Virus record (IMG/VR): IMGVR_UViG_3300009695_000004 | Coordinates: 1 to 64,000 of that record | DNA from: a virus | Direction: 5' to 3' (one strand) | DNA length: 64,000 nt | Shown: in pieces, positions 12,465-63,260 of the stretch | How positions within the stretch are numbered: the first letter of the stretch is position 1 | Layout of the letters: every line of letters begins with the position of its first letter | Position numbers and translations under genes: made by a program | Notes under the pieces: generated by a model | The model's input: only the letters and a program-made list of their open reading frames with translations | The model's database searches: none | What the model was told of the DNA's origin: nothing

Positions 12465-12483
12465 CATATTATATTTGATTTGT
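12465..12483 (-). promoter_or_regulatory. phage promoter-like motif
   Basis: Sense strand ACAAATCAAATATAATATG, immediately after the stop of the upstream gene and 18 nt before ATG 12446. Confidence 0.55.
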
Positions 12484-18134: not shown

Positions 18135-19091
18135 TTACTCCTTTCCTATCATAGAAATAAAATCTTCTTCAGATATAATTGGAACTCCTAAACTCTTAGC
18201 TTTCTGATTTTTGCTTGATGGAGAATTAACGTCATTATTTATAAGATATTCTTCAAATAAATATTTTTGTGGCGCAAATTCTCCAAAATATTTTATTTCC
18301 GCTTTTAATCTAGATGCAATAGCATTTTCCTTATTTTTAAAACTTCCTAAAGTGATACTTTTTTTATTATATTTTATTTGGGAAATCCATTTGTTTTTAA
18401 TATCACTCCAATACACCCCTGTTATTCCGCTTTTATTATTTTTAAATAGATTTCTATTCATGAGATTTTGTTGACGAGTTGATTTACGTAGATTTTCTTT
18501 TTTATTATTTAATGGGTTTTTATCTATGTGGTCTATTTGAAATTTAGTATTAGTATAATTATCAAGTCCTAAAATAACATAATGTAAACTTATAAATCTA
18601 CTACATTCATCAATGTATACCACATACCCATCTTCGTTTAAATGCCATTTATATTTTTTAATTTTATCAATGTCTTCTAAATCGGCTGTTGCCGAAGCTA
18701 TTTTATTAGAATATACATCACGTATAATTATTTCTATAAATTGTTCATTTTCAATGATTTCATTTTTATCATATTTAGTAATTTTTAATACACACTCAAA
18801 TTTATCAAATTGACCTCTATGTTTTGCACACAAATATGTATCTATCTTCTTTACATATGTTACTCTATTATCACCATCACATATATTACATAAGTGTTTA
18901 ACTTTATTGTAGTTATGACTTTTTAATTCTAATAATTTAGACGTTATTAAATGATTATTAATACTTTTTAAATTTCTTAAAATTGTATTTGAAGAACATT
19001 GATATTTTTTCGCTAAAGTTAAACTATTATGTTCAAAAGATAAAAAATCATCTTCCAATTTTTTCAAATCAATAATAATTTTTCTAGACAT
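18135..19091 (-). CDS. HNH (HNH_3) homing endonuclease with AP2 DNA-binding domain
   Basis: HNH motif QIDHIDKNPLNNKKENLRKSTRQQN. AP2 domain SGITGVYWSDIKNKWISQIKYNKKSITLGSF. Abuts the ligase gene. Confidence 0.75.
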   Translation of the reverse strand: MSRKIIIDLKKLEDDFLSFEHNSLTLAKKYQCSSNTILRNLKSINNHLITSKLLELKSHNYNKVKHLCNICDGDNRVTYVKKIDTYLCAKHRGQFDKFECVLKITKYDKNEIIENEQFIEIIIRDVYSNKIASATADLEDIDKIKKYKWHLNEDGYVVYIDECSRFISLHYVILGLDNYTNTKFQIDHIDKNPLNNKKENLRKSTRQQNLMNRNLFKNNKSGITGVYWSDIKNKWISQIKYNKKSITLGSFKNKENAIASRLKAEIKYFGEFAPQKYLFEEYLINNDVNSPSSKNQKAKSLGVPIISEEDFISMIGKE

Positions 19092-21034
19092 TAAATCATA
19101 TCCTTTATAATTTTTAGAAATTCATCTTCATACATAATTTTTACTCCATCTTTTTTTGCTTTATCCTCCTTAGAACTTCCTTTAAGCGAACCGACCACAA
19201 GGATAGATAAACTCTTAGAATATCCTACTGCAAACTCTCCTCCGAGATTCGCAATTATAGATTTTAACTGATCTTTCTTGTATGATGCAAATGTTCCCGT
19301 GCAATATATTTTTTTATCTTTAATTGGATTCTCTGCGATTACCTTAGTCTCCTTAGTTTCAAATTCCAAACATCTTAATAATTCACTGTACATTTCAATA
19401 TTTTCCTCAGTGAGCCATTTATAAATTGAATCGTTCGTTATTTCGCCTATATCTTTTATAGTAGAAAAGTCAAACCAATTTCCTATTGCATCAAATAAAT
19501 CATCTACCGAACCTTTGAAATGATTAGATATATCTTTCGCAGTTCCTTTTCCAACATTTGGTATTCCTAACCCGTATAAGAAATTTTCAAGTTTACATGT
19601 TCTAGAATTGTCAATTGCCTCAATTATTTTATTATAGGACTTTTCTCCAAAGCCTTCTAGCATTATGATGCGATCTTTGTAATATTCCAAATCATATAAA
19701 TCAGGTATAGTTTTTATAAATCCCATATCTATAAATGTTTCTAATATTGCTTCAGATACTCCTAAAATATTCATTGCATCACGACTACAAAAGTGTTCAA
19801 ATTGTGCAATCTTTTTAGAAGGACAATCTGCATTTGTACAGAATAATACTCTGGCAGTTTTTAATAATCTTACCTCAGTTTTATCTCCACAAACAGGGCA
19901 TACTTCTGGAATTTTCTCTGTATTACTTCTAGTTAAATTCCCTGTAATTTTAGGGATCACATCATTAGCTTTAATTAAAGTAACTGTGTCCCCTTGTCCT
20001 AATTGTAGTTCCTCAAAGTAATCTACATTATGTAAAGTGGCTCGTTCAATTTCACTTCCTGAGACATCACATGGTTGGAATATTCCTATAGGGTTGAGTT
20101 GACCCGTCCGAGAAGTTCTCCATTCGGTTGTAATATATTCTGTTTCAGATACTTCATCATAAAATTTAAAAGCAATTGCATTCAGAGGATGATGTGAAGT
20201 CTCACCCAAACTCTTACCATATGCAATATCATTATATTTTAAAACCTCACCATCTATGGGTATGCCTTCTATTGCAGCGATATCTTTCATATCACCAATA
20301 ATTTCCTCATCTATGTCTTCTACAATCTTGTATGGAATTGTTTCAAATCCTTGACTATTCAAAAACTCAAACTGATCCTCAACTGTTTCTAAATCTTTTT
20401 CACAAGTTAGAATATTAAACGCTAAAAAATTAACAAATCTTTCGCTACATATTTTAGAGTCAAGTTGTCTTACTGAACCGGCTACTAGATTCCTGGAGTT
20501 TTTATACTTACCATTTTCTTTATAATTTATAAACTTAAAATCTTTATTATATATAACAGCTTCTCCAGCTAATTTCAAATAGCCTTCATAATTTATCTTC
20601 AAAGGAATATTCTTAAAAGTTCTTACATTATGAGTTATATCCTCGCCAATAGTAGAATTTCCCCTAGTACTACCTTGAATAAGTTCTCCATTATTATAAA
20701 TTAATTCACAGGTGAGGCCGTCACCCTTTAACATAAGAACACATTTTTCTCCTCCGGTAAATCTGTGTAAGTCGTTAACGGATTTAGTTTTATCAAGAGA
20801 TTTTAGTGGAATAGAATGTGTTACCTTCTGGAGTTTTGATATAACTTCATATCCTACATTTTGAGTCGAGCTTTCTGATAATATAAATCCTGTCTCTATT
20901 TCTAATGCCTTCAATTCATCTTGTAGGCGATCAAATTCCTTATCCGTCATTATGATATCACTTGTATTATAGTAAGTGTCACTGGCCTTATTTAGTAGTT
21001 CTGTCAGTTTCCTTATTCTTTCTATTTTATTAAT
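19091..21034 (-). CDS. ligA: NAD-dependent DNA ligase LigA, probable non-ATG (ATT) start
   Basis: KxDG adenylation site MLKGDG, Zn finger CPVCGD...CTNADCPSK, plus HhH and BRCT regions. The reading frame stays open upstream of the track ATG (20950) and encodes INKIERIRKLTELLNKASDTYYNTSDII, which looks like domain Ia. GGAGGAG lies at 21041-21047 and only ATT/ATA codons are available as starts. Confidence 0.8.
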   Translation of the reverse strand: MNKIERIRKLTELLNKASDTYYNTSDIIMTDKEFDRLQDELKALEIETGFILSESSTQNVGYEVISKLQKVTHSIPLKSLDKTKSVNDLHRFTGGEKCVLMLKGDGLTCELIYNNGELIQGSTRGNSTIGEDITHNVRTFKNIPLKINYEGYLKLAGEAVIYNKDFKFINYKENGKYKNSRNLVAGSVRQLDSKICSERFVNFLAFNILTCEKDLETVEDQFEFLNSQGFETIPYKIVEDIDEEIIGDMKDIAAIEGIPIDGEVLKYNDIAYGKSLGETSHHPLNAIAFKFYDEVSETEYITTEWRTSRTGQLNPIGIFQPCDVSGSEIERATLHNVDYFEELQLGQGDTVTLIKANDVIPKITGNLTRSNTEKIPEVCPVCGDKTEVRLLKTARVLFCTNADCPSKKIAQFEHFCSRDAMNILGVSEAILETFIDMGFIKTIPDLYDLEYYKDRIIMLEGFGEKSYNKIIEAIDNSRTCKLENFLYGLGIPNVGKGTAKDISNHFKGSVDDLFDAIGNWFDFSTIKDIGEITNDSIYKWLTEENIEMYSELLRCLEFETKETKVIAENPIKDKKIYCTGTFASYKKDQLKSIIANLGGEFAVGYSKSLSILVVGSLKGSSKEDKAKKDGVKIMYEDEFLKIIKDMI

Positions 21035-26097: not shown

Positions 26098-26116
26098 CGT
26101 ATTATATTTGATTTGT
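26098..26116 (-). promoter_or_regulatory. phage promoter-like motif
   Basis: Sense strand ACAAATCAAATATAATACG, 16 nt before ATG 26081. Confidence 0.55.
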
Positions 26117-45057: not shown

Positions 45058-45086
45058 TTGACAATACGAATATAATATAATATACT
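45058..45086 (+). promoter_or_regulatory. sigma-A consensus promoter with phage motif in spacer
   Basis: TTGACA, the 17-nt spacer ATACGAATATAATATAA, then TATACT. A roughly 190-nt leader runs to the rep ATG. Confidence 0.6.
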
Positions 45087-46091: not shown

Positions 46092-46409
46092 TTATATTCA
46101 TGTTGTAATTGCAGAGCTACTAATGCATATGGTGAGAAATCTGCTATAGCATATCTACTTAACAGATTCTTAAATCCACTTGATAAAGGATTCTTTGAAG
46201 ATAAAGGTATTTCTATTGATGAAGATTTATGGGCTTTGAGTGAACTCATACAATTCATCTGGAGAAGTAGGATCAGAAATGATAAAAGTATTAATATTTA
46301 TATCCCAAATAGTCGTATGAGAATGCTGTTTAAAAATTACCTTGAAAATAACCTTGGGAAATCAGAAGTCCCAAATCAATTTTTAGATGGCTCAACCATG
46401 CGTGTTTGA
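46092..46409 (+). pseudogene. start-less C-terminal gene fragment (helicase-like C-terminus?)
   Basis: An open frame from the TAA at 46089 to the TGA at 46407-09 has no usable start. It reads ...AYGEKSAIAYLLNRFLNPLDKGFFEDKGISIDEDLWALSELIQFIWRSRIRNDKSINIYIPNSRMRMLFKNYLENN... The composition is protein-like. The family assignment is from memory only. Confidence 0.45.
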
Positions 46410-48391: not shown

Positions 48392-49120
48392 TTGGAGGAA
48401 AGATATGGTGTAATATATAAAATTACAAATATCCTTAATGACAAAGTTTATATAGGACAAACAATTAAGAGAGGCGGATTTGACTCTAGATATCATGGAA
48501 GCGTCGAGAAGACACACAACTCTCACCTAAGAAGGTCTATAGAAAAATATGGCAAAGAAAATTTTGAAATAGATAAAGAATTATACATAGCTTATTCTAA
48601 AGATGAACTCAACAATAAAGAGTTAGAATTTATAAAATTATATAAAAGTAATGATTATAATTATGGATATAACATAAAAGTTGGAGGAGACAACATAGGC
48701 AAAATTGAAGGTAAAAATAGAGCTGATATATTATTAAGACAAGGGAGCTGCATTATATGTAGGACTACCTATGAGATATTTTTATCCTTTACGGATGCGA
48801 GTGAAAAATATAATATAGGAACTGAACAAATAAGGAAACAATGCAATGGGCTCACTAATTTTAGAAAAGAAACTTTTTATAACAAAGAACTTAATACGTT
48901 TTTAGAATTCGAATATTATGATCATGTCAAAAAGGGAATTAGAAAACCAGTCATTTGTTGTAATACTAAGGAAATATTTAAAAATTGCAAATGTATTTCT
49001 GAAAAATATGATTTCATAATTAGAGAAAGTCTTAGGAGTGCATTATATCGTAGTCAAAAATATGAAAAGAATGGACTTGAATTTATGTATTTATATCATT
49101 GGGTGATTGAAAACTATTAG
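48392..49120 (+). CDS. GIY-YIG homing endonuclease
   Basis: N-terminal YGVIYKITNILNDKVYIGQT...R...YGKENF...E is GIY-YIG. The TTG at 48392 lies 9 nt after GGAGGA. The track N-terminal extension from 48299 overlaps the promoter motif and another ORF. Confidence 0.75.
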   Translation: MEERYGVIYKITNILNDKVYIGQTIKRGGFDSRYHGSVEKTHNSHLRRSIEKYGKENFEIDKELYIAYSKDELNNKELEFIKLYKSNDYNYGYNIKVGGDNIGKIEGKNRADILLRQGSCIICRTTYEIFLSFTDASEKYNIGTEQIRKQCNGLTNFRKETFYNKELNTFLEFEYYDHVKKGIRKPVICCNTKEIFKNCKCISEKYDFIIRESLRSALYRSQKYEKNGLEFMYLYHWVIENY

Positions 49121-49121
49121 T

Positions 49122-49140
49122 ACAATTCGAATATAACATA
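49122..49140 (+). promoter_or_regulatory. phage promoter-like motif
   Basis: ACAATTCGAATATAACATA, 24 nt before the start at 49165. Confidence 0.5.
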
Positions 49141-49164
49141 AGTATTGGAGGGATTATTATAGCA

Positions 49165-51786
49165 TTGAATAAGCAAATTCATATATATAGTGTAGATACT
49201 AGTGCGTTTTATAACGAAGCCGAAATGATAATCCATAGAAGATTAAGCAAATTGTATTCCTATAAAAAAGAGTTGATTCGCAAACGAGATAAATTTAAAG
49301 TTGTATTTGTTAATGAAAAATGGAAAATAAATATAAAAAAGCGTATCAGACAGTCTAGTTTGGCAATTAAAAATACAAAGCAAGGTTTATATGTAAAATT
49401 TGGAGAAAATATTGGTATAAGAAATCTCAATGAAAAATCTTTAAATAAATATAATATAATTTCAATGTTCGACTCCAGTTTAACTAGATTAATGAAAATA
49501 CCAATAAATACTATTACAGAAGATATTATAGTTGTTCAAACATATTTCTTTGAAGTTATAAAAGATATTATTATAAATGGGTTTACCTCTAAAGGAGAAA
49601 GATATGTTTGCTTCACCGCTAGTGCAGGACAAATAAGAACAAAGAAAACTGTATTCATAAAAGAAAAAGTTCTGAAAGAACATATAAATGCTATTACCTG
49701 TGGACTGAGCCTAGAAGAGATAAACAGGCATGGAGGAGTTAATGTAAATAAATACTTAGCATACTTAGCCTTATGCAATTCAGCTACAGATGAATGGGAA
49801 GGATTTGATATAACTAAAACAATAGTTGTAGAAGATATGGATACCGAAGTTCCTGGAATTGTAGATTTTATTGATGATAAGACTTATGAAATTAAAAGAA
49901 CTCCTATGGAGATACCTATTTCACATACAGATGGGTGTGGGGTTATGTTGCCTAGCAAATATAAGAAGTCAAGAATGGCTAGACTACCCTGGATTAAAGG
50001 ACTTTTAGTCCCTATGCCCTTTGATAAGTTTATTCGTGAAAAATCTAAGGAAACAGGAGTATATTGTGGGATAATACAAGATATTTATGGAAAAGAACAT
50101 GATATTCTAAAAGAAAAAATTGAAGTTATATTTACCAGAAGTCAATTTAAGATGGCGAAGTATTATGATTCGTGGGAACAATATAAAGAGAACTTTATTA
50201 AATTTGGTTGTCAATCATGTAAATGTAATGAGGAAGAAGATATTTTCAGTGAGGCTAAATTGAATTACCAGATGCTACAAACCTTAATAGATATGGAGGT
50301 TCATGAATTAAAGCCTGTTATTAAAAAAACTAAATACAATATCATAAATATTGGCAAAGATAGAAAAACAATGTTGAAGGTGTTGGGTGTTGTGGCATCT
50401 AATATAAATAAGAACTATATTCAACAAGCATTAGAGATATATCCTGAATTATTGAATGATACCTATAGTAAAGAAATATTAAAACAAGTTAAAAAGAGTT
50501 TAGTTAAAGAAGGAAGATCTGGTAAATTAGATTTAGGCAAAAACGGAATATATACTTTTATCATTCCAGATTTATATGCTTTCTGTGAATATCTATTTCT
50601 TGGAATTAAAAATCCGGAAGGAATACTTAAGAGTACAGATGTTTATTGCAGTCTTTATAAAGATTCTCCTAAGTTGGACTGTCTAAGATCTCCTCATTTA
50701 TTTTTAGAGCACGCAGTTAGAAACAATGTTATAGACAAAGAGAAAGATAGATGGTTTATTACAAGTGGACTATATACAAGCTGTCACGATATGATCAGTA
50801 AAGTGTTAATGTTTGACAATGATGGTGATAAATCCCTATTATGTGCAGACACTACTATAATTACAGTTGCTGAAAGGAATATGAAAGATATTGTTCCCTT
50901 GTATTATAATATGGCTAAAGCTCCTGCGAAAGAAATAAACAACGAGGTTATATATGAAGGATTAAAGGCAGCATATACGGGAGGTAACATAGGTTTATAT
51001 AGTAATAATATAACAAAGATATGGAATAGCGAGAATATTAACCTTGAAGCAGTAAAATTATTATGTATGGAAAATAACTTTACAATTGATTATGCTAAGA
51101 CATTGTACAAGCCTAAAAGACCATCTGATAAACAGGAGTTAATTACTAATTATACCAAATCTAAAGTTCCAAGATTCTTCATTTACGCAAAAGATAAAGA
51201 AAAGGATAAAGTTGAAAAGGCCAATAATAGTACAGTAAATAAATTACTAAAAATGATTCCAAACCCTAATATTAATTTTAAGAATATGAAGTTGGGTGAA
51301 TTTGATTTTAAAATGTTAATGAAGAATAATGATGTTGAATTAGATGAAGTTATTATTAAAAAATATACGAAATTGGATTTAAAGAAACATTTTATGTTGA
51401 GTTCACATGATGAAGAATCTAATAATATGTGTTATTTATATCAGGATATTAAAAATCAAATATTAGAAGTTAATAGTGATATTAATTATGTAACAGATGT
51501 GTTGGTTAGGTATTTATATGAAGAAAAAAAATCTAGTTTCAAAACTACTTTATGGGAATGTTTTGGAGATATTATGGTTAAAAATTTAAAAAGGAATATT
51601 CCTAATGGTTTTGAAGATGGGTATATGTTGTGTGAAATATGTGGGGATAGAATTGAAGATAGTTGCAGCACTAAAAAATATTGTGAAAAATGTGCCAAAG
51701 AACAATGGAAAGAGCAAGTTAAACTAAATATGAGAGAATATCGTAAGAGAATCGTTATAAAACGAACCGAGTCTGTTAACCCTTGA
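49165..51786 (+). CDS. YonO-like single-subunit two-barrel RNA polymerase (RdRP/beta-prime-like DxDGD motif)
   Basis: MFDNDGDKS (D-N-D-G-D at 50815-50829) matches the universal Mg-binding DxDGD/NADFDGD motif. FTASAGQIRTKKTVF (49612-) resembles the SQLR-type motif of the RdRP/YonO family. At 873 aa it is similar in size to SPbeta YonO. C-terminal Zn ribbon CEICGD...CEKC. Confidence 0.6.
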   Translation: MNKQIHIYSVDTSAFYNEAEMIIHRRLSKLYSYKKELIRKRDKFKVVFVNEKWKINIKKRIRQSSLAIKNTKQGLYVKFGENIGIRNLNEKSLNKYNIISMFDSSLTRLMKIPINTITEDIIVVQTYFFEVIKDIIINGFTSKGERYVCFTASAGQIRTKKTVFIKEKVLKEHINAITCGLSLEEINRHGGVNVNKYLAYLALCNSATDEWEGFDITKTIVVEDMDTEVPGIVDFIDDKTYEIKRTPMEIPISHTDGCGVMLPSKYKKSRMARLPWIKGLLVPMPFDKFIREKSKETGVYCGIIQDIYGKEHDILKEKIEVIFTRSQFKMAKYYDSWEQYKENFIKFGCQSCKCNEEEDIFSEAKLNYQMLQTLIDMEVHELKPVIKKTKYNIINIGKDRKTMLKVLGVVASNINKNYIQQALEIYPELLNDTYSKEILKQVKKSLVKEGRSGKLDLGKNGIYTFIIPDLYAFCEYLFLGIKNPEGILKSTDVYCSLYKDSPKLDCLRSPHLFLEHAVRNNVIDKEKDRWFITSGLYTSCHDMISKVLMFDNDGDKSLLCADTTIITVAERNMKDIVPLYYNMAKAPAKEINNEVIYEGLKAAYTGGNIGLYSNNITKIWNSENINLEAVKLLCMENNFTIDYAKTLYKPKRPSDKQELITNYTKSKVPRFFIYAKDKEKDKVEKANNSTVNKLLKMIPNPNINFKNMKLGEFDFKMLMKNNDVELDEVIIKKYTKLDLKKHFMLSSHDEESNNMCYLYQDIKNQILEVNSDINYVTDVLVRYLYEEKKSSFKTTLWECFGDIMVKNLKRNIPNGFEDGYMLCEICGDRIEDSCSTKKYCEKCAKEQWKEQVKLNMREYRKRIVIKRTESVNP

Positions 51787-51943
51787 TATGACTGGTTTGT
51801 AGGGATTTAAATTATTTATATTTTTATCAGTATGACTATAAACCTAGTGATATAGCCATTCTTATTAAAGTTGTTCAAAAACACGATAGTCTATAAAGGA
51901 GAATGAACTATATTTACACAAAAACAGAGATTTATTTTTCCCA

Positions 51944-51962
51944 ACAATTCTAAAATAATATG
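51944..51962 (+). promoter_or_regulatory. phage promoter-like motif (degenerate)
   Basis: ACAATTCTAAAATAATATG, followed by a hairpin (GTGGT 51965-69 pairing with ACCAC 51999-52003) and a T-run. Confidence 0.35.
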
Positions 51963-52017
51963 CGGTGGTTACATAGGGCGGAAATTCCTTCTGTCCTTAC
52001 CACATTATTTTTTAATA

Positions 52018-52036
52018 ACAATTCAAATATAATATA
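52018..52036 (+). promoter_or_regulatory. phage promoter-like motif (perfect)
   Basis: ACAATTCAAATATAATATA, 26 nt before the start at 52063. Confidence 0.55.
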
Positions 52037-52062: not shown

Positions 52063-53505
52063 TTGTATGTGAGTAAGAACAAAGATAACGAAGTAAGTGT
52101 TCAATTTATAGGAAACTCTGCAATAGATGTCACAGGTTCAGCAGTCCTAATAACATTTATGAATAAAACATATTTAATAGAATGTGGTAGCGTCCAAGGA
52201 TATAGTCCTGACAAATGCTATACAATCAACAGTCAGTTAATTAGTAGTATAGATGTTAATAAATTAGAAGTAATCTGGCTTTGCCATAACCATAATGATC
52301 ACATTGGCATGATCCCTGGCGTAGTTAGAAAAGAAGGATTTCACGCAGATATATTTTGTACGCACGAAACTGTAAGCTTAAGTAAAATAATGCTGCTTGA
52401 TGCTTCTCATATAATAGGTAAGGAAGCTGAAATTCTAAGTAAAACTAAAAAAGTATCTCCTTTATATAAAGATGAAGATGTTTTGAAAGCTTGCGACTTC
52501 ATGAGAGGTTGCGATATTGGAGTAACATATAAAATCAATGATAATGTATCTTTTAAATTACATAATAATAATCATTGCTTAGGAGCAAGTCAACTGGAGG
52601 TATTTTTTAAGAAAAGTAATAATACGATTAAAAAGTTAGTTTATACCTCAGATTTAGGAAGCACATTAAATAAGCATAAACCATTTGTAACAAAACTTGA
52701 AAAGGTTACACAAGGGAATGTCACAGTTTTAGAGGGCACGTATGGTAAAAAAGACAGAAGTTTTACTTCTAAAGATGTCTATGATGAAAAAGAAGATTTA
52801 AAAAATAAGATAAAATTAATAATTGCAGGCGGAGGTAAGGTTTTACTCCCAACCTTTAGTTTTTCAAGAACGCAGGAAGTATTAGTGGACATGTATAATA
52901 TGTTTCACGATGATCCAGACTTTGGAGATACACCAGTTATAATAGATTCTAAATTATCTGTAAATATCACAAATTGTTATAAGGATATATTAAAAGATAA
53001 GAATCTAAAATTAATTGAAACGGTTACTGCTTGGAAAAACGTAGAATTGAATAAAGATTTTGAAGGAACTAAAATGATTATAGCGAGCAGTGAACCTTGC
53101 ATAATTCTCTCAAGTCAAGGATTTTGTGATGCGGGAAGGTCACAATTATATGCAAAGAATTTTTTAACAAATCCTAAAGATGCGATATTATTCGTGGGAT
53201 ATTGTCCTGCAAATAGTGTCGGAGGAAGAGTTCAATCAAATAAACAAGGTGGAACAGTAAAGATATGTGGACTAGATTATGTAAAAAGTTGTTTTGTTAA
53301 ATCTTATAGGACGTACTCTTCTCACGCACAGAATAAGGAATTGGTTGATTATATTACGTCAGTGAATAGCGAACAGGTTATAATTCATCATTCTGATAAA
53401 GCCGCTAAAGAAGAATTGATTAAAGATGCAAAAGAAGCATTAAGTAAGGTTTGCAAGACAACGAAAGTTATTGGTAGTACAAGGAATATGGAATTTTTTT
53501 TATAG
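52063..53505 (+). CDS. metallo-beta-lactamase fold beta-CASP nuclease (RNase J/CPSF73/SNM1-like)
   Basis: HNHNDHIG (HxHxDH), TSDLGS, EGTYG (motif A), YSSHAQNKEL (motif B) and IIHHSD (motif C). The start is TTG 52063 or GTG 52069. Confidence 0.75.
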   Translation: MYVSKNKDNEVSVQFIGNSAIDVTGSAVLITFMNKTYLIECGSVQGYSPDKCYTINSQLISSIDVNKLEVIWLCHNHNDHIGMIPGVVRKEGFHADIFCTHETVSLSKIMLLDASHIIGKEAEILSKTKKVSPLYKDEDVLKACDFMRGCDIGVTYKINDNVSFKLHNNNHCLGASQLEVFFKKSNNTIKKLVYTSDLGSTLNKHKPFVTKLEKVTQGNVTVLEGTYGKKDRSFTSKDVYDEKEDLKNKIKLIIAGGGKVLLPTFSFSRTQEVLVDMYNMFHDDPDFGDTPVIIDSKLSVNITNCYKDILKDKNLKLIETVTAWKNVELNKDFEGTKMIIASSEPCIILSSQGFCDAGRSQLYAKNFLTNPKDAILFVGYCPANSVGGRVQSNKQGGTVKICGLDYVKSCFVKSYRTYSSHAQNKELVDYITSVNSEQVIIHHSDKAAKEELIKDAKEALSKVCKTTKVIGSTRNMEFFL

Positions 53506-54544: not shown

Positions 54545-55765
54545 GTGATAAATGAACTTGAAATACGTGAGGGTGAAACGCCTTTAGAACATCATAAACG
54601 ATTAGTATTTGGAAAGTTATTAGATAAAAGTTTATCAGATCAAGATTATACTGAATTATCTAAATATGTATACAATCAAGAATTATCTTCAGATGTTTGC
54701 AGAAGAGAAATGTATGGTTCTAAATATACTTTGAAGTTGATGGAACAAAATACATTGAAAGCTGAACCTAAAAGTCACCTTTCAGAAATAAGAGAGAAAG
54801 TTGGAGAACTTGACATTATAAAACGTCAAATCCAACTTGAAAAAAGTGAATTAAAGAAAATGAAAAATGAAATTGTAAAGTCAATATCTGTTTCTGACGA
54901 CCTTAAACAATATATGGATGACATTAATTTTCAAGTTAGTATTCCTGAGTATTGCAGCATTCCTATAGATGAAATTAGTCAGTATGAAATGATTCTTCAT
55001 ATCACAGATTTTCACATAGGATATGTTATAAATGACTGCAAAGGTAACTATTATAGCTTTGAAATTGCAAATCAGAGAATAGATAAATTGATTAGTGAAT
55101 GTTACAAATATATTGAAATGTATAATATCAAGAAGATTTATTTGGTAAATACTGGAGACGTAATAGAACACATTAGTATGCGTGCTAATCAATCGCAATT
55201 CTGTGAATTTAATCAATCAAAACAGATCAATAAAGCAATTGAAATAATTTATAGACTTATGGTTGCTCTATGTAAATTCTGCGATGTTGAATATGATTCT
55301 ATTTATGGCAATCACGATAGAATGAATGGTGATAAAAAAGCAAACTTAGATGGTGATAATGCAGAAGTTATTATTAGAGAACAGTTGGGTAAATATGTTG
55401 AGATTAGTAAGAACGCAAGAGCAAAGGTTATAGATAGAAAGTCTACAGATAAAGAAATCATAAAAGTAATCAATGGAGTAAATTGTAAATTTGTTCATGG
55501 AGAAGATAAGTCTAATGATGGCAGACAATTTATAAAGAGTGAAATATCTATGGATAATCAATTCTATACGCTTCTGTTTAAAGGCCACTTACATAATTTC
55601 AAACTAGAAAGTGAGAATAATGGAAGATATATTATTAGCACCGGATGTCTTAGTGGATACAATGATTATTCTGTAAACTTTGGTTGTACAAGCCTTCCAT
55701 CACAAACAATAGTTATTGTGGCAGAAGGTAAAGTTGAATTAATTAAGGATGTTCAGTTAAATTAA
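54545..55765 (+). CDS. calcineurin-like metallophosphoesterase (Mre11/SbcD-like fold) with about 150-aa N-terminal extension
   Basis: HITDFHIG, NTGDVIEH, YGNHDRM and FKGHLHNF motifs in canonical order. GTG start after AGGGAGG. Confidence 0.7.
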   Translation: MINELEIREGETPLEHHKRLVFGKLLDKSLSDQDYTELSKYVYNQELSSDVCRREMYGSKYTLKLMEQNTLKAEPKSHLSEIREKVGELDIIKRQIQLEKSELKKMKNEIVKSISVSDDLKQYMDDINFQVSIPEYCSIPIDEISQYEMILHITDFHIGYVINDCKGNYYSFEIANQRIDKLISECYKYIEMYNIKKIYLVNTGDVIEHISMRANQSQFCEFNQSKQINKAIEIIYRLMVALCKFCDVEYDSIYGNHDRMNGDKKANLDGDNAEVIIREQLGKYVEISKNARAKVIDRKSTDKEIIKVINGVNCKFVHGEDKSNDGRQFIKSEISMDNQFYTLLFKGHLHNFKLESENNGRYIISTGCLSGYNDYSVNFGCTSLPSQTIVIVAEGKVELIKDVQLN

Positions 55766-56678: not shown

Positions 56679-57073
56679 ATAGAAATTTAAGGGAAATCTG
56701 TGATTACTATAGGAAGTGTTATATAGACGTATATAACGGGATACACAGACATGTGCTTAGAGGTGTTAGTAGCACAAAATAAAGGATACTGAGTAAGTGA
56801 AACAGGCAGACACTTCGCTTGATGCAAACTAACCTATATGGATTGTGTGTCGAGTCTTAAAAATAGTTTGATTGGATTATCAGACTGAGTTATGCGAGAA
56901 TGCCACCTCGCCTTATCCTTTATAGTATGATTATAAACCCACTTTCCAGTATATTTCTTAGTATACTCTCTTAAAGAGTGCGGGAGTTAAGGTGCTGATT
57001 GTTCAGTGACACAAGGGTCTTTATAATTTATATCTTTATGGAGCTAAAGGCTCGAAATAATAATCTTTGGGAT

Positions 57074-57247
57074 AAAACTAAATTAAGTAGTGGCGGAATA
57101 TTTACCATCGTGGTAATAGTAGACGCTAGATTGATTAACATTAGAAACTATCGAGGTGTAATTCCTATAACGCCTTTGGAGTTGATCACCATTGACTGCG
57201 TAAGGTTTTCATGTTGGGTGCAAATCCCTACCTACTTAATCAGTTTT
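57074..57247 (+). ncRNA. structured module A closed by long-range helix
   Basis: ATTAAGTAG (57082-90) pairs with CTACTTAAT (57232-40), extended by AAAAC (57074-78) with GTTTT (57243-47). The interior starts TGGCGGAATAT. Confidence 0.45.
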
Positions 57248-58517
57248 AAAATTTAAGAGGTAGTTTAGGCATATATTTATATGTTTATCTACAGCCTTCC
57301 ATGATTGCAAGTGGAAGTTTATAATAGTGCGAAAACACTTTAAATATGGAGATAGCAGAAGCAGTCTCCTTCTGTACCTAGAGACAATAAATACATAGGT
57401 TAGTAGGCTTGGTTAGAGTCTCAGAACTAATCTGCTTCTATGGGTGTTAGTGTAACGATAGCACACCTTCAAAGGATACGTAGAACACGTTTGACTCGTG
57501 TACATCCTAATAATATTATTTTAAAAGAAGATTTTCTCATAGAGCGTGAGAAATTAAAAATAAAGAAAGCTCAATTATAAGATTTAGTTGTAGAACGCAA
57601 CTAAGTAAAAATAAAGAAAGTTCAATAGAAGAATGTTTTATAGCAGACGTAAGGTCAAACAAAAGACTGTTGAGGATCGGAAATGTTCCCGACACGCTAT
57701 CTATATTGATAGTTAACAGGTATGTAGGAAGTGCAGCCCTACCAACAGTCTAATTCTATGTAAGCTATATACCTATTCGCACCTAGAAGCCTGTGCGAGG
57801 ACGATGATAAGGGGAAACATCTAAAACCCTATAGCAAAAAATCTATAATACTAGGCAATATAGGTTTAATCTTATTTATATTACAAGGTGTATCCAGCCT
57901 TCGAAAATGGAAACTTTAAATTCATGCCATACACCAAGGGGCTTTGTACCTTGGCTATTTAGTCCGATAAGGACAAAAGTTGCACGAGTAATGACGATAG
58001 TTAACAAAGTGTAATGAAGGTAATACAACAGTTCGGAGATTACCTTTGAGACGGGAACTCCTTAAAAACGCCTAGGGAATCGCAGCGCAAATAGGAAAGG
58101 TCTAAAGTGTTTTGCGATAAACATACACTTATAGATTTATCTCACTTCTTTAAATAACAGTTCTCTCAAGCCTCTGTTTATAATGCTATTATAATTAAGC
58201 GTAACAATGAGAGCCAGAAATTTATATTTTGATAGCGACATAAATCATGTGGTTTATGTGGTTTAGGAGGAGGATTATTTTCTAATATTAACTTAAAGTT
58301 AGTGTATCTGTTGAGATACTAGCCTTTGTTACTTTATGCGATAAATTAAAGTAAATAGTATGTCGCTACTCGATATGCGACTAATAAAAGGTCGAGTTCA
58401 AATGTTGTAATCTATGGAGAGTCCCTACCATATAGTGGGAAACTTTAAACTCAAGTTCTTTAAATTTAGTTATAAATTCTTTATATATGAAGACTTTCGT
58501 ACTATTGTTAAAGAACT

Positions 58518-58636
58518 AATAAGTAGTGGCGAAATATAAACGCATGACACCTACGACTTGACTACTTTCTAGAGGTAGAGATTAGGTGATTAAACAATCA
58601 AGTCCTGCAAAGGTGAAAGTCCTTTGTCTACTTATT
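58518..58636 (+). ncRNA. structured module B, paralogue of module A
   Basis: AATAAGTAG (58518-26) pairs with CTACTTATT (58628-36). Relative to module A, one base pair is swapped U-A to A-U on both strands. The interior starts TGGCGAAATAT. Inner hairpin CAAAGG/CCTTTG. Confidence 0.45.
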
Positions 58637-58862
58637 CTTAAAATATTATGACTCATTTATATTTAGTAAGCCAAAGGGCATACACAATCATACAAACTTC
58701 CATGAACGACTAACTACATTGGATTTGTTGTTCTAAAAAAGTAGAGAGGTGTTTAGAAGTGCTTAGATTGCCAAATGGTCGAAGCTACCTCGATACTAGC
58801 CTGAGTTTGGGTTTGTAGGGCTCAAAAGGTTTTGCTGCTTTCCGAAAAAGCAGATTTAATAT

Positions 58863-58937
58863 GCTGATATGACTCAACGGTAGAGTAGCACACTTGTAAT
58901 GTGCAAGTTGTAGGTTCAAATCCTATTGTCAGCTCCA
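58863..58937 (+). tRNA. trnT: tRNA-Thr (anticodon UGU) with encoded CCA
   Basis: Folded manually. Acceptor GCTGATA/TGTCAGC (one G-U), D stem ACTC/GAGT, anticodon stem GCACA/TGTGC, loop CTTGTAA, T stem GTAGG/CCTAT, T loop TTCAAAT, discriminator T, then CCA. Confidence 0.9.
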
Positions 58938-58944
58938 GGAGCTT

Positions 58945-58976
58945 TGGTGATGGTACTCCGTTAATAACAATCACCA
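58945..58976 (+). terminator. possible terminator hairpin after tRNA
   Basis: TGGTGAT pairs with ATCACCA (7 bp, 18-nt loop), followed by CCCCCTTATATTT. The U-run is poor. Confidence 0.3.
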
Positions 58977-59051
58977 CCCCCTTATATTTAGAATAATGCA
59001 CATTTTAAAAGGTGTCTATTGTTAAGGTGTTTATTCTTGTGGATATAACTA

Positions 59052-59070
59052 ACAAATCAAATATAATATA
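59052..59070 (+). promoter_or_regulatory. phage promoter-like motif (perfect), upstream of packaging genes
   Basis: ACAAATCAAATATAATATA, 17 nt before GTG 59088. Confidence 0.55.
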
Positions 59071-59087
59071 TAAAGGAGAGATTTACT

Positions 59088-59963
59088 GTGGGTGTAGCAT
59101 CTGTAAGTAAAAAGTGTCCGTTATGTGGCGACAATAAAAAATTTGAGTCTTATTACAGCCATAGAGATAACTCAAAAGAACATGGAAGAGACGTAATCTG
59201 CAAGATTTGCAGTAAAACCATGGCGTCTTCTAAAGAAGGAATGATGAGATATTGTAGTACCAATTCAAGAAGGTTTGATGAAGTTCTTTGGAAGTGGGCT
59301 GAAGATAAAATAACATTGAAACTTAAAGAAGATATTGAACACAACTCATTGAGTGAAGATAAGAAGAAAAAGATACTCAATGAAAAAATAGCGAGTGCTT
59401 ATTTTGGTCAGATGAATCAAGTTAATTGGTATGCGTTTATTCCGGATAGTTCGGTGGACATTAAAGAGCTAAAAGCTGATTTAGAGGATGAAGAATACGA
59501 CAATACTCCTATTAAGAAGAGAAAAGAACGAAAAACATATTCTTTAAAATGGGCAGGAGATTTTACAGCAGAAGAAATTATTTATTTAGAGGATCAATAT
59601 AAGAAAGCACAAGATCAATATGATCTTAAGACTGGAAATGATTTTGAGTATGCTATGAATGTTGCAGTTGCTGGATTGATAGTTCGTAAAAATCGAAATG
59701 GATATTTAAATGGAGAAAATGGAGCGGATAAAAGATATAAAGAGGCGGTAGCAATTTATGACTCTTTGTGTACAAGTTCTAAATTTAACCAGAAGACACG
59801 CTCGACCAACGATACCGCTGGCTTAGGGTCTCTAAGTGAAATTGTAGCAAAATTAGAACAAACAGGATTTCTTCAGAAGAAAATTATATTTGAAGATGAT
59901 AGTATTGAGAAGGTTAACGCCGATTTACGTCATGTTTTAAGCAGCGTAGGTGGTGACAGTTAA
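59088..59963 (+). CDS. putative terminase small subunit / DNA-binding protein with N-terminal Zn ribbon
   Basis: Assigned by its position directly upstream of, and overlapping, the large terminase gene. Contains CPLCGD...CKIC. GTG start after AAAGGAGAG. Confidence 0.4.
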   Translation: MGVASVSKKCPLCGDNKKFESYYSHRDNSKEHGRDVICKICSKTMASSKEGMMRYCSTNSRRFDEVLWKWAEDKITLKLKEDIEHNSLSEDKKKKILNEKIASAYFGQMNQVNWYAFIPDSSVDIKELKADLEDEEYDNTPIKKRKERKTYSLKWAGDFTAEEIIYLEDQYKKAQDQYDLKTGNDFEYAMNVAVAGLIVRKNRNGYLNGENGADKRYKEAVAIYDSLCTSSKFNQKTRSTNDTAGLGSLSEIVAKLEQTGFLQKKIIFEDDSIEKVNADLRHVLSSVGGDS

Positions 59964-61720
59964 TGGCAGTAAACTATTCTAAAAAGAAACAAAATAAACA
60001 GTTTAGAACAGATATTAATGGAGATAGTCCAGATAGCCACAACGTTGTCAAGCAGTCTAGCCTTGAAAATCCTGAAGAATGGGAAAAGCAAATTTTATTC
60101 TGGAGAAGTCATTTAGATATTTTCATAGAAGATTATTTTTCTACTCCTGAAAGACCAGTTGAACTTAAAGATGTTCAGAAAGTTGTTGCAAGGAATTGTG
60201 GAAATTGTACGAATGTAATTGATATAGAATCACGTTCTTATGGTAAGACATGGAAGATGGCGTGGATATTGAGTGCCCTGAGCATTTTATACAGCGACAA
60301 TCGTATTTTGGTAGTTTCTGGTAATGTTAGCCAAGCCATGCTCGTAGCAAATTATATTAGAGATATTGCGAATGTTAATGTCAATTTTGCTAGGGAAATA
60401 CACCTACCTGTGAGAATTGCGAAGGATGGAGCTACAGTTAAATTTAAAAATAATTCTACAATAATATGCAAAGCCATGGAAAAAGATGGTAAGAACATAG
60501 TTGGGTTGCGGGAAAAAATAATTTATATTGACGAAAGTTGGCTTATAAAATCTACTGTAATTCAGAAGGCTTTAAGACCAATGTTGTCATACACCCGTGA
60601 TGTTGCAAGAGAACAAAATTTTGAAGATTTTGATTCGAAATTATTTGAAACATCATCAGCATATTTGAAAACATGTGATTTATATAAAAGATTTACAGAT
60701 AATGTTAACGACATGAAAAAAGGTAATACGAATAAGTTTGCATGTGCTTTAAATTATGAATCGGGAATTAGAACTGGTATTATTAAAAAAACATTTGTGG
60801 AAGAAGAAAAAAGCAATATGCTTGAAAGTTTATTTAGCATGGAATATGGTGCGATTTTCATTGGGAATCAGAATGGTTCATTCTTTCCATATGACCTTAC
60901 AGAGCCTTGTAGGAATATGAAATTTATGGAATTAAAGCAACCTGCTCATTCAAAATCAAGATATATACTTTCATTAGATGTAGCCACTTCTGAAAAAGAC
61001 GGCGCAGATAATGCTAGTTTATTGGTGACAAAATTCATTGAAAAAAGTGATGGAACTTTTCATAAATATGCAGTCCACATGAAAACATTTCACGGATATG
61101 CTCAAGAAAAACTTGCAGAAGAAGTAAGAAAAACTTGTATTAGGTTTCCTAACATAGAGTCAACTATTATTGACGGAAATGCTATCGGCGAAGGAGTCGT
61201 AAGTTTACTAAATTTTCCTTATGTGTGTGACAATGTAGAGTATAAGCCTTTTGTAAGAGATGATATTGGGTACACTGGTACTAATGCAATTCCCATTGTT
61301 AGATTTTTTCGTGGAAGTAATGATATCAATAATAGAATGGTTACAAAAACTAAATTGTATTTTGAAAACGGAACATTGCATCTACCTATTCCCTCTTCCG
61401 AGGCAAGAAGATTACAAGATGATACTTTCGATGGTTCAAATAAAAATGATAAAGCAAAACCAAGAGAGTTATTAATTGAAGAAATAACAATGTACTTTGA
61501 AGCTGATAAATTACAATTTGAACTTTCTACGATAATTCCTAAACTTACAACAAAGGGATCAACTTTTTATGAAACGGCTTTGACTACACAACATAATGAT
61601 AGATGTTCTTCCCTTTGGATGGCTATGGATTATATTTCACAGTTAGAGGAGAAGAACAGAGAAAGTTATAATAATAATACTGAAGGTATGTGTATGGGCA
61701 TAGCAATGACTTGGAATTAA
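59963..61720 (+). CDS. terL: terminase large subunit
   Basis: Walker A-like SRSYGKTWKMAW, Walker B IIYIDES, and a C-terminal nuclease-like LDVATSEKDGADNASLLV. ATG overlaps the upstream stop (TAATG). Confidence 0.75.
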   Translation: MAVNYSKKKQNKQFRTDINGDSPDSHNVVKQSSLENPEEWEKQILFWRSHLDIFIEDYFSTPERPVELKDVQKVVARNCGNCTNVIDIESRSYGKTWKMAWILSALSILYSDNRILVVSGNVSQAMLVANYIRDIANVNVNFAREIHLPVRIAKDGATVKFKNNSTIICKAMEKDGKNIVGLREKIIYIDESWLIKSTVIQKALRPMLSYTRDVAREQNFEDFDSKLFETSSAYLKTCDLYKRFTDNVNDMKKGNTNKFACALNYESGIRTGIIKKTFVEEEKSNMLESLFSMEYGAIFIGNQNGSFFPYDLTEPCRNMKFMELKQPAHSKSRYILSLDVATSEKDGADNASLLVTKFIEKSDGTFHKYAVHMKTFHGYAQEKLAEEVRKTCIRFPNIESTIIDGNAIGEGVVSLLNFPYVCDNVEYKPFVRDDIGYTGTNAIPIVRFFRGSNDINNRMVTKTKLYFENGTLHLPIPSSEARRLQDDTFDGSNKNDKAKPRELLIEEITMYFEADKLQFELSTIIPKLTTKGSTFYETALTTQHNDRCSSLWMAMDYISQLEEKNRESYNNNTEGMCMGIAMTWN

Positions 61721-61751: not shown

Positions 61752-63260
61752 ATGTCAAGAAGTAAAAAGAAAACAGCAATTGCACAGAAACAAGTGAAAC
61801 ATATTCAAGTAGTAATCCCAGAATATTCTCTTGGATTCGATATGAAATCATATCAAGGAGATGGGGGTAAACCTATTACTGTATATGAAAATAGATATTC
61901 ATCTAATGGTGATGTTAAAGGTTACAATGTCGATCAGATTTTAAAAAATAAACAAGATAATATATATAAAATATTTGAACTTTGTAATTATTATGTTGAT
62001 GCAGACCCAATATATGGAAACGCAATAAAAAAGATATTAACTCCATTCTCATTATCTGGATGGAAACTTATGGGTGCATCTGAAAAAATAAAGCAAAAGT
62101 ATATGGATTATTTTGAATCAGTGGGGATTTTCGATTTGCTTAGGGATTCATTTTATGATCTGAATCTATATGAAAATTGTTATATTTATGATAGGGGTAA
62201 CTGGTTTGATATATTCCCTCCTCATAGAATCAGAGTTAGTTCTATAGGTATTAATGGTGAACCTGTACTAGAATATAAGATTGCAGAATTTGGAAATAGA
62301 AATTATACAATTGCAAAAGAAGGATTTATAAATACCCTATTGAAACAATATGAGGGATACCCTCCTGAAATACTCGATGGAATAAAAATGGGTACTTTAT
62401 GGGTGCAATTGTCACCTGATAATTGTTATTCCTTGCAAGGTGTAAAATCTCGTTGGGAAAAATATTGTATTCCATTTATAAGTTCATGTCTAAAATCTTT
62501 TTCAAATAAAAATCTAATTGGAGATTTTGAAAACAGCCAATTATCAGCAGGAATGAAGCCATTTCTACATGTTAAGGTAGGCTCAGAACGTGTTATGCCT
62601 TCTCCTTCTCCAGATATCTTAAAAGATGTTGGACTGATATTTCGTAATGCAATTAATGGTTATCCATTAGCAATAACTTCACACGTGGTTTCTGCAAATT
62701 GGGTTTCAACCGATACTAAAAATATGTTTGATAAAGCAAAATATGACGAAGTTAATACTTCTATTTTGGCGAGTTGTGGTTTAAGTGCAATAATTGTAAC
62801 AGGAGATTCCACTGGTTCTAACTTCGCAAGTGCAACAATTAATGTATCTGTTGCTGAAAAAAAAATTTCTGCTAATCAAAAGAATGTTGCAGAATTTCTA
62901 AAGAAGATTATGAAAAAAAGAGCAATAGAATGGAGAATCGCAGAAAATAAAGTTCCAACTTTTGTATTTGACAAAGTATCAATTCAAGATGATCAAACTA
63001 TGAAAGATGAAGTATTGAAATTATTTCAAAGTGGACTTACCTCATATGCTACAACTATTAATACTCTCGGCTATGACTACGACCAAGAAAAAGAACGCAA
63101 GAAAAAAGAAAAGTCAGATGGAGATAAAGAAATATTTGAAGTGCCAGCATCTTTTAATACTCAAGCAAAAGGAGATAATGGTGGAGGTGCACCAGAAGTT
63201 CCGGGTGCGAACAAGGATTCAAGCGCCACAGGAAAACAACCAAAGCCTAGTACAGCTTGA
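61752..63260 (+). CDS. putative portal protein
   Basis: 502 aa, immediately after terL. Low-complexity basic/Gly-rich C-terminal tail. Assigned by synteny and size only. Confidence 0.5.
   Translation: MSRSKKKTAIAQKQVKHIQVVIPEYSLGFDMKSYQGDGGKPITVYENRYSSNGDVKGYNVDQILKNKQDNIYKIFELCNYYVDADPIYGNAIKKILTPFSLSGWKLMGASEKIKQKYMDYFESVGIFDLLRDSFYDLNLYENCYIYDRGNWFDIFPPHRIRVSSIGINGEPVLEYKIAEFGNRNYTIAKEGFINTLLKQYEGYPPEILDGIKMGTLWVQLSPDNCYSLQGVKSRWEKYCIPFISSCLKSFSNKNLIGDFENSQLSAGMKPFLHVKVGSERVMPSPSPDILKDVGLIFRNAINGYPLAITSHVVSANWVSTDTKNMFDKAKYDEVNTSILASCGLSAIIVTGDSTGSNFASATINVSVAEKKISANQKNVAEFLKKIMKKRAIEWRIAENKVPTFVFDKVSIQDDQTMKDEVLKLFQSGLTSYATTINTLGYDYDQEKERKKKEKSDGDKEIFEVPASFNTQAKGDNGGGAPEVPGANKDSSATGKQPKPSTA

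Follow-up and report, generated by a model that had tools for sequence, protein, structure and literature searches.

The stretch of viral DNA analysed here, referred to as the window, comprises the 64,000 nucleotides at positions 1 to 64,000 of the IMG/VR record IMGVR_UViG_3300009695_000004, and its plus strand carries, at positions 49165-51786, a gene that very probably encodes an orthologue of YonO of phage SPbeta, i.e. a single-chain DNA-dependent RNA polymerase of about 100 kDa with an active site predicted to consist of two double-psi beta-barrels. Since YonO is a proven DNA-dependent RNA polymerase for late genes, the gene represents a fresh member of a known family—a further copy of a known enzyme and not a new kind. 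The only non-coding element beside yonO that is conserved across the family is a stretch of about 70 nucleotides located 3' of the gene and designated here as e1.

A reading of the window made from its sequence only had proposed a YonO-like single-subunit RNA polymerase at this place, and the comparisons by sequence, family and structure uphold the proposal. The open reading frame (ORF) is present exactly at the claimed positions, starts with TTG and stops with TGA, and the same product was obtained when genes were called independently on the source contig. The protein, close to YonO in size as claimed (873 amino acids against 839 in SPbeta), shares 52% identity with SPbeta YonO from end to end (BLASTP, 435/844 residues, E = 0), the segments FDNDGDK and SAGQIRTKK being identical in both and the C-terminal CxxC...CxxC with its four cysteines being kept. 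The sole Pfam family found is PF05183 (RdRP), with 46.1 bits against a gathering cut-off of 23.8 bits (E = 4e-12) and with the best stretch, residues 125-262, spanning the SAGQIR region; in PHROGs, phrog_8308 is matched at positions 1-848 (E = 3e-290). When 50,697 phage records were searched in translation, yonO of SPbeta, phi3T, Goe11-14 and further phages was found with 51-52% identity across 97% of the query, and yonO of the Clostridium phage D-1873 with 61% identity.

Concerning the motifs, the two pointed out beforehand are located where they had been placed: the Asp triad D551-N-D-G-D555 is encoded precisely at 50815-50829, and the upstream motif YVCFTASAGQIRTKKTVFIKE corresponds to residues 147-167, approximately 400 residues before the triad. 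In the alignment of 67 sequences (the query and 66 homologues), the residues D551, D553, G554 and D555 are invariant, as are S153, G155, Q156, I157, R158, K160 and K161 of the upstream motif, and because of this invariance the DNDGD and SAGQIR motifs are beyond chance. The same holds for the invariance of R508, S509, P510 and L512, belonging to the RSPHL motif that we take to be comparable with the R-x-P-x-L-H motif of beta-prime, and of the cysteines C823, C826, C840 and C843, which putatively form a zinc ribbon and through which we infer zinc to be bound. The gene and its features are as follows:

49165..51786, plus strand: yonO orthologue, predicted single-subunit two-barrel RNA polymerase (ORF, homology, model)
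49147..49152, plus strand: Shine-Dalgarno sequence GGAGGG, 12 nucleotides (nt) 5' of the TTG codon (read from the sequence)
49621..49647, plus strand: SAGQIRTKK codons (S153-K161), conserved motif in the N-terminal (beta-like) barrel region (Pfam, BLASTP, alignment; identical in SPbeta YonO)
50686..50700, plus strand: RSPHL codons (R508-L512), preceding the metal-binding loop (alignment)
50815..50829, plus strand: D551-N-D-G-D555 codons, catalytic Mg-binding Asp triad (BLASTP, alignment; SPbeta YonO loses its activity with 3D>3N, PMC5467207)
51631..51693, plus strand: C823-x2-C826 ... C840-x2-C843 codons, putative zinc ribbon at the C-terminus, with a basic helix after it (BLASTP, alignment, model)

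The AlphaFold model, computed from the 67 sequences, has a predicted local distance difference test score (pLDDT) of 88.5 and a predicted template modelling score (pTM) of 0.84. In the Foldseek comparison with the PDB, each of the top 21 matches is either plant RDR2 or fungal QDE-1 (E = 1e-16 to 6e-11, the best value for RDR2 being 1e-16 and that for QDE-1 about 1e-13), with template modelling (TM) scores of approximately 0.45-0.53, a probability of 1.00 and some 800-900 aligned columns; the top structural matches in BFVD are phage proteins labelled as RNA-dependent RNA polymerase. The whole-chain match of the model with RDR2 and QDE-1 agrees with the two-barrel architecture on which the sequence-only reading had let its proposal depend. 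Searching the PDB by sequence, both with the single protein and with the 67-sequence profile, yielded nothing relevant, and no solved YonO structure turned up.

Several points should be weighed against this assignment. The function is ascribed through sequence identity to one characterised enzyme, at the 52% mentioned above; the two barrels are read from a whole-chain match of a predicted model and not barrel by barrel; and the whole-chain fold similarity to a cellular beta-prime subunit is not significant (Foldseek against 6f6w_D, E = 0.57). At the level of the gene, TTG is used as the start codon and the spacing of 12 nt from the Shine-Dalgarno sequence is rather long. The locus, unlike that of SPbeta, is without the HU-like yonN, has a beta-CASP nuclease and an HNH endonuclease situated between yonO and the yonJ-like gene and exhibits a 2.4-kb RNA-rich spacer before yonG. 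The region around the mapped YonO start of SPbeta has no recognisable counterpart in the window, and the late start site of SPbeta is therefore not transferable to it.

The characterised enzyme, named 'DNA-directed RNA polymerase YonO' by NCBI for the B. subtilis protein, works strictly as a DNA-dependent RNA polymerase and builds elongation complexes that are stable (Forrest et al. 2017, PMC5467207); it exhibits little pausing and no proofreading and loses all activity when the three Asp residues are replaced by Asn (3D>3N). In the SPbeta yonO deletion 37 late genes are silent, which share a single start site 5' of yonK, and the promoter was left undetermined in that study (PMC5467207). Within the family, primer-independent RNA synthesis on DNA and the dependence of late genes on the enzyme are known for SPbeta YonO only. 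The earlier statement that YonO-type enzymes are poorly characterised thus does not apply to the activity, the triad and the late-gene role, all described in 2017, but it does apply to the promoter; no later paper determining it was found in the literature searched.

The element e1 was found by comparing the intergenic regions 3' of yonO in the closest relatives. It consists of the consensus TAATnGTCTnTAAGGGAGA(C) and a hairpin, begins 45-200 nt past the stop codon of yonO, occurs in phages of the Bacillus, Paenibacillus and Clostridium types and is present in one copy per locus. In the window it is followed by a further hairpin:

51881..51951, plus strand: e1, i.e. CGATAGTCTATAAAGGAGAA, then the hairpin GGAGAAUGAA / UUUAUUUUUCC with the loop CUAUAUUUACACAAAAACAGAGA (comparison, folds; single copy in the window)
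51965..52014, plus strand: terminator-like hairpin with a folding free energy of -16.4 kcal/mol and z = -3.0, then AUUAUUUUUU (fold)

A hidden Markov model derived from five e1 copies found matches in dozens of loci, in nearly all cases 100-200 nt beyond the end of yonO and on the same strand. With a weight matrix trained on 26 of the 115 yonO loci—some of the loci being duplicates of one contig—e1 was above the 99th percentile of 644 control windows in 68 of the 115 loci, compared with about 1% of the control windows, at an offset of 29-252 nt from the yonO stop codon; the copy in the window reached a score of 21.0, the control maximum being 16.9. The e1 pattern was found at 14 sites in IMG/VR, and in all 13 of those with upstream sequence the yonO C-terminus is encoded 120-180 nt 5' on the same strand. 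There is no matching family in Rfam.

The e1 stem opens with GGGAGA, and its partner co-varies between phages, the pairs being GGGAGAC/GTTTCCC in SPbeta (e1 at L001:11611-11675), GGGAAAAGGC/GCCTTTTCCC in locus L074, GGGAGGTA/TATCTCCC in L027, GGGGGA/TCCCCC in L018 and GGGAGTAA/TTACTTCC in L040; the loop keeps CTAATATACAAA..AAGAG (also written CUAAUAUACAAA..AAGAG). In 19 of 20 single-sequence folds, with the ends chosen by the analyst, the ends of e1 are paired in the minimum-energy structure (mean z-score -2.4). RNAalifold predicted no pairs for e1 aligned with MAFFT, the reason being that the aligned stems are shifted against the conserved loop; the evidence for the stem is weaker since it comes from single-sequence folds with chosen ends. 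As would suit a leader or attenuator, AAGGGA of e1 can also pair with an upstream TCCCTT, and a T-run follows some copies of e1.

As to its role, e1 could be a promoter, a leader or attenuator, a small RNA, or an element of the 3' untranslated region of yonO. Tentatively, it may be regarded as an undescribed cis element functionally coupled to the polymerase—either a promoter with its leader, or an RNA attenuator or leader gating the entry into the late genes. The more specific possibility that e1 combines the YonO promoter with a 5' leader hairpin, the late transcript starting at about 51897 and reading through the hairpin at 51965-52003, is rather unlikely. It would suit the occurrence of e1 in 68/115 loci versus approximately 1% of control windows, the yonO gene found directly 5' in 13/13 testable IMG/VR matches and the single copy per locus, and also the terminator-like hairpins that often separate e1 from yonO, the order of yonO, e1, a 63-residue ORF (likened to yonK by size) and yonJ in L115, and the layout of the element itself, in which the unpaired 5' half TAATnGTCTnTAA precedes the GGGAGA opening the co-varying stem. 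The published YonO start (2,225,998), however, is located about 630 nt 3' of the SPbeta e1, with no sequence common to the two sites, and the 12-mer common to e1 and a second SPbeta site is, at the latter, within the YonO transcript, which argues for a motif acting at the RNA level; moreover, the column-based covariation test failed owing to the stagger of the stems in the MAFFT alignment, so that the stem is supported by single-sequence folds.

The position of the published start in the SPbeta locus (L001) follows from the gene-distance tables for B. subtilis 168, in which the yonP start is at 2,222,441 or, in the second table, at 2,222,418 (PMC4448311). Accordingly, 2,225,998 maps to L001:12303-12307, or to 12326 with the second table, the two tables differing by about 22 nt and the whole span L001:12303-12326 corresponding to about 60,529-60,552 of AF020713; cross-checks of the mapping with yokF, yosA and yolC agree within 2-3 nt. 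The mapped start coincides with the 3' end of the forward primer used by the authors of PMC5467207. The homology between SPbeta and locus L022 begins exactly at L001:12303-12306, and the start-site region is not conserved outside the close relatives of SPbeta. The 12-mer mentioned above, GATAATNGTCAT, has exactly two copies in the 132 kb of SPbeta, one in e1 and the other between the primers used for start-site mapping. It was considered as a mark of the YonO promoter and dropped: the mapped start lies 75-100 nt 5' of the second copy, which is therefore inside the YonO transcript. The pairing of this copy with a complement further 3' points to a motif at the level of RNA.

The sequence-only reading had also ascribed to yonO its own copy of a promoter motif repeated in the window. 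The copy does exist, ACAATTCRAATATAAYAT being found exactly at 49122-49139, 25 nt 5' of the yonO start codon; as evidence of a YonO promoter it does not hold, the 18-mer appearing by homology to be a repressor operator, the counterpart of the SPBRE of SPbeta, and not a promoter for YonO. The copy at yonO and further examples are as follows:

49122-49139, plus strand: SPBRE-like 18-mer ACAATTCGAATATAACAT, adjoining the ribosome-binding site, without TTGACA on its 5' side and without a -10 box on its 3' side (motif scan and SPBRE homology)
12466-12483, minus strand: 18-mer copy (motif scan)
26099-26116, minus strand: 18-mer copy (motif scan)
45061-45078, plus strand: 18-mer copy (motif scan)
59052-59069, plus strand: 18-mer copy (motif scan)

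The 18-mer ACAAWTCAAATATAATAT has 45 matches in the window with at most three mismatches, compared with an expectation of 2.4. Of these, 43 run in the same direction as the genes; apart from two exceptions, copies on the minus strand are confined to the part left of 43 kb and those on the plus strand to the part right of 45 kb. In the form ACAAATCAAATATAATAT it is similar to the SPBRE ACAAATACAAATAATATG, present in SPbeta in the promoter spacers of yonP (the gene before yonO), yonX, yonT, aimR and yopV. By chromatin affinity purification sequencing (ChAP-seq) and electrophoretic mobility shift assay (EMSA), MrpR, the master repressor of SPbeta, was shown to bind the SPBRE at early promoters, including that of yonP-yonO (PMC10516654). 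Owing to this homology, the 18-mer bears on the repression of yonO and its reading by the host polymerase, and not on the recognition site of YonO. The copies at 45061, 46591, 13792, 26910 and 30987 are situated inside TTGACA-N17-TATAxT promoters. Approximately 18 others, including that of yonO, abut a Shine-Dalgarno sequence and have neither promoter box—an arrangement of which no case was seen in the 38 kb of SPbeta examined. Each lineage of relatives carries its own version of the repeated 18-mer; loci L003 and L013 exhibit both arrangements with the version GTAATTAAAGGATAATAT, one of the L003 copies being directly 5' of yonO. Two SPBRE-like copies, at 51944-51961 and 52018-52035, flank the terminator-like hairpin at 51965-52014. 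A tblastn search with SPbeta YopR (MrpR) gave no match at E <= 0.01 in the window, which covers 64 kb of a contig of approximately 120 kb.

That the 18-mer, as ACAATTCAAATATAATAT, is instead a promoter for YonO in the manner of T7, with most phage genes including yonO being transcribed from about 40 such promoters, is improbable. The excess of 45 copies over 2.4 expected with all but two co-oriented with genes, the approximately 18 copies abutting a ribosome-binding site with no sigma-A -35 and -10 boxes in the expected register, and the similarly arranged versions GTAATTAAAGGATAATAT of L003 and L013, one of them 5' of yonO in L003, would all be compatible with it. It is contradicted by the homology to ACAAATACAAATAATATG, to which MrpR binds at early promoters (PMC10516654), by at least six copies in the window that occupy the spacers of TTGACA-N17-TATAxT promoters, by the position of the motif before the replication genes and yonO, which are needed before YonO exists, and by the dependence on YonO being limited in SPbeta to the late cluster with one start site (PMC5467207); in several copies, furthermore, a start 7 nt past the internal TATAAT would fall within the Shine-Dalgarno sequence.

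With regard to other polymerases, QDE-1 (2J7N, 7Y7P) and RDR2 (7W82, 7RQS) belong to the same Pfam family as the protein from the window, have the DxDGD metal loop and are its best structural matches, although the sequence identity is only 11-14%; they copy RNA or single-stranded templates in gene silencing, whereas YonO is a strict DNA-dependent phage transcriptase. It is highly improbable that the protein is an RNA-dependent RNA polymerase copying RNA, e.g. amplifying phage or defence RNA, and not transcribing DNA: although PF05183 'RdRP' is its sole Pfam match, RDR2 and QDE-1 use RNA templates, several homologues bear the label 'RNA dependent RNA polymerase' (inherited from the name of the Pfam family) and structured RNAs cluster 3' of yonO in several phages, the 52%-identical SPbeta YonO strongly prefers DNA over RNA templates, being stricter than the E. 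coli RNA polymerase, and is required for late mRNA synthesis (PMC5467207). The beta-prime/beta subunits of the multisubunit RNA polymerases have the DxDGD triad in common with YonO (NADFDGD), preceded by R-x-P-x-L, and a two-barrel origin is common to both (PMC5467207, PMC2919709); according to the literature, YonO has no homology to the trigger loop, flap, lid or clamp. The multisubunit core is about 400 kDa, compared with the one chain of about 100 kDa in YonO. The T7-like RNA polymerases represent a functional analogue, i.e. a phage single-chain processive polymerase taking over late transcription. Their fold is unrelated, being of the right-hand, Pol I-like type, and no sequence or structure match to them was seen in the searches with the protein from the window.

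The family represented by YonO is a large one, with 3801 matches among the scored candidates in a set of 5.8 billion proteins and 1031 clusters at 50% identity; 292 matches were confirmed in 185,579 species genomes, mostly of Bacillus, Paenibacillus, Lachnospiraceae and Oscillospiraceae. CLG_B2308 of the Clostridium botulinum phage D-1873 and the uncultured P0002-P0011, all of them annotated as hypothetical proteins, share 61-75% identity with the protein from the window and have the same e1 3' of the gene. As in SPbeta, yonO follows the divergent early control region, precedes terminase and portal, and has an SPBRE-type operator 5' of it. The protein, on the other hand, is 34 residues longer, the host is Clostridium-like with about 29% guanine plus cytosine (GC) and not a Bacillus, there is no yonP upstream, and the gene has a GIY-YIG homing endonuclease and a beta-CASP nuclease as its neighbours.

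The gene layout common to relatives and the span of the source contig, 116-122 kb against 134 kb in SPbeta, place the window in a phage or prophage of the SPbeta type, its Clostridium-like host having a GC content of about 29%. The GC skew and the coding strand switch at 44-46 kb. The minus strand to the left codes for DNA polymerase, primase, a DnaB-like helicase, NAD ligase and several HNH endonucleases, and the plus strand to the right for small ORFs, the GIY-YIG endonuclease, yonO, a beta-CASP/RMMBL nuclease, an HNH endonuclease and YonJ-like and ClpP-like proteins, followed by 2.4 kb of non-coding DNA, a YonG-like protein, the large terminase and the portal. The yonO gene has the early control region on one side and the late operon on the other. 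The relatives L116 and L117, with YonO 68-70% identical, have the same order of yonO, beta-CASP, phosphoesterase, ClpP, YonG, terminase and portal, and the order of yonO, yonG-like and terminase is also kept in six more distant loci. The neighbours of yonO are:

48392..49120, plus strand: free-standing GIY-YIG homing endonuclease gene just 5' of yonO (PHROGs, gene call)
52063..53505, plus strand: beta-CASP/RMMBL nuclease of the metallo-beta-lactamase fold (Pfam)
54545..55765, plus strand: YonJ-like metallophosphoesterase/exonuclease, phrog_284 (Pfam, PHROGs)
59088-59963, plus strand: YonG-like protein, with which the late genes begin (Pfam, PHROGs, loci comparison)
59963-61720, plus strand: large terminase (Pfam, PHROGs, loci comparison)
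61752-63260, plus strand: portal (Pfam, PHROGs, loci comparison)

Both flanking genes had been correctly named from the sequence. The upstream one matches homing-endonuclease PHROGs, one of them described with a GIY-YIG motif (best E = 1e-19), has no Pfam match at 1e-3 and probably has its true start at 48392; the downstream one contains a Beta-Casp domain (E = 2e-20) and RMMBL. This nuclease is a conserved 3' neighbour of yonO in the clostridial lineage (L116:13123-14598 and L117:13013-14467), but not in SPbeta or L115, and the L117 copy has a weak precomputed Pfam match to Anti-Pycsar_Apyc1. When 19 SPbeta proteins were compared with the window by tblastn, 18 found no match, among them YopR, YonN, YonK, YonJ, YonG and YonF. 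The sole match, at 46101-46349 on the plus strand, is 55% identical to the last 83 residues of YonV and overlaps only a 57-residue ORF; the stretch is probably a gene remnant. In the opposite direction, tblastn of the window ORFs with the SPbeta yonO region matched only YonO and, weakly, a segment of the portal.

The window contains at least four HNH or GIY-YIG endonuclease genes, and its intact yonO is flanked by homing endonuclease genes of both types. The HNH endonuclease ORF at 18135-19091 (minus strand) directly follows the ligase gene at 19091-20950 (minus strand), and its last 36 residues match the C-terminal end of the NAD-dependent DNA ligase, which suggests that a homing-endonuclease insertion may have duplicated the ligase 3' end. 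Among the other yonO genes, those of five IMG/VR contigs (L119, L121, L122, L126 and L129) contain a stop-rich insert of 1083 nt that splits the catalytic motif exactly after FD and before VDGD; the insert resembles an intron but has no Rfam match. Interruptions are also seen in the phage records H3-H19 and in L026: in phi3T, Goe11 and related phages yonO is annotated as two pieces with an ORF between them, in L026 the YonO match ends at residue 625, and in BUCT083 a GIY-YIG nuclease gene lies under the yonO match.

The non-coding stretch before the packaging genes contains the following features:

56682..59087, plus strand: 2.4-kb non-coding stretch with raised GC
57491-57519, plus strand: sigma-A-like promoter TTGACT-17-TATTAT just 5' of the spacer RNAs
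57529-57630, plus strand: two tandem 6A RNAs (Rfam)
57665-57750, plus strand: skipping-rope RNA (Rfam)
58863-58937, plus strand: tRNA-Thr(TGT)

About 2 kb of the spacer has no match in Rfam or in the fetched loci, the SPbeta non-coding region after yonN exhibits no nucleotide similarity to the spacer at 56.7-59.1 kb, and L116 and L117 have only 143-400 nt at its position. Structured RNAs are also located between yonO and the late genes, on the yonO strand, at L020:13455-13556, L007:13228-13318, L031:17311-17432, L001:13381-13446, L002:15650-15757 and L072:15289-15887. A skipping-rope RNA was found 3' of yonO in four of the 21 loci scanned, a DUF3800-VIII RNA in SPbeta, a drum RNA in D-1873, and ROOL, tmRNA and about 20 tRNAs in L072. 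The skipping-rope, drum and DUF3800 RNAs were reported by Weinberg et al. to associate with nearby proteins, which the main text of that study leaves unnamed. The link of skipping-rope RNA to yonO is not exclusive: three of its seven IMG/VR matches are beside yonO, and the other four show neither yonO nor common proteins in the stretch available.

By orthology with SPbeta, the host polymerase would read yonO early. In the lysogen, yonO would be kept silent by a master repressor, because the spacers of the sigma-A-type promoters at about 45058 and 46588 contain an SPBRE-like operator. YonO would then transcribe the late genes to its right—those for packaging, structure and lysis—in a processive manner with a weak response to pause signals, and without a trigger loop or proofreading.

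The gene itself, as one more YonO orthologue in a large family, changes little. Its value is comparative, the SPbeta-type late-transcription module now being seen in a host of about 29% GC and with another set of neighbours. Should e1 be coupled to YonO, the targeting of two-barrel single-subunit RNA polymerases would for the first time become accessible across the family; being short, conserved and present in a single copy beside yonO, the element could make the question of YonO targeting directly testable.

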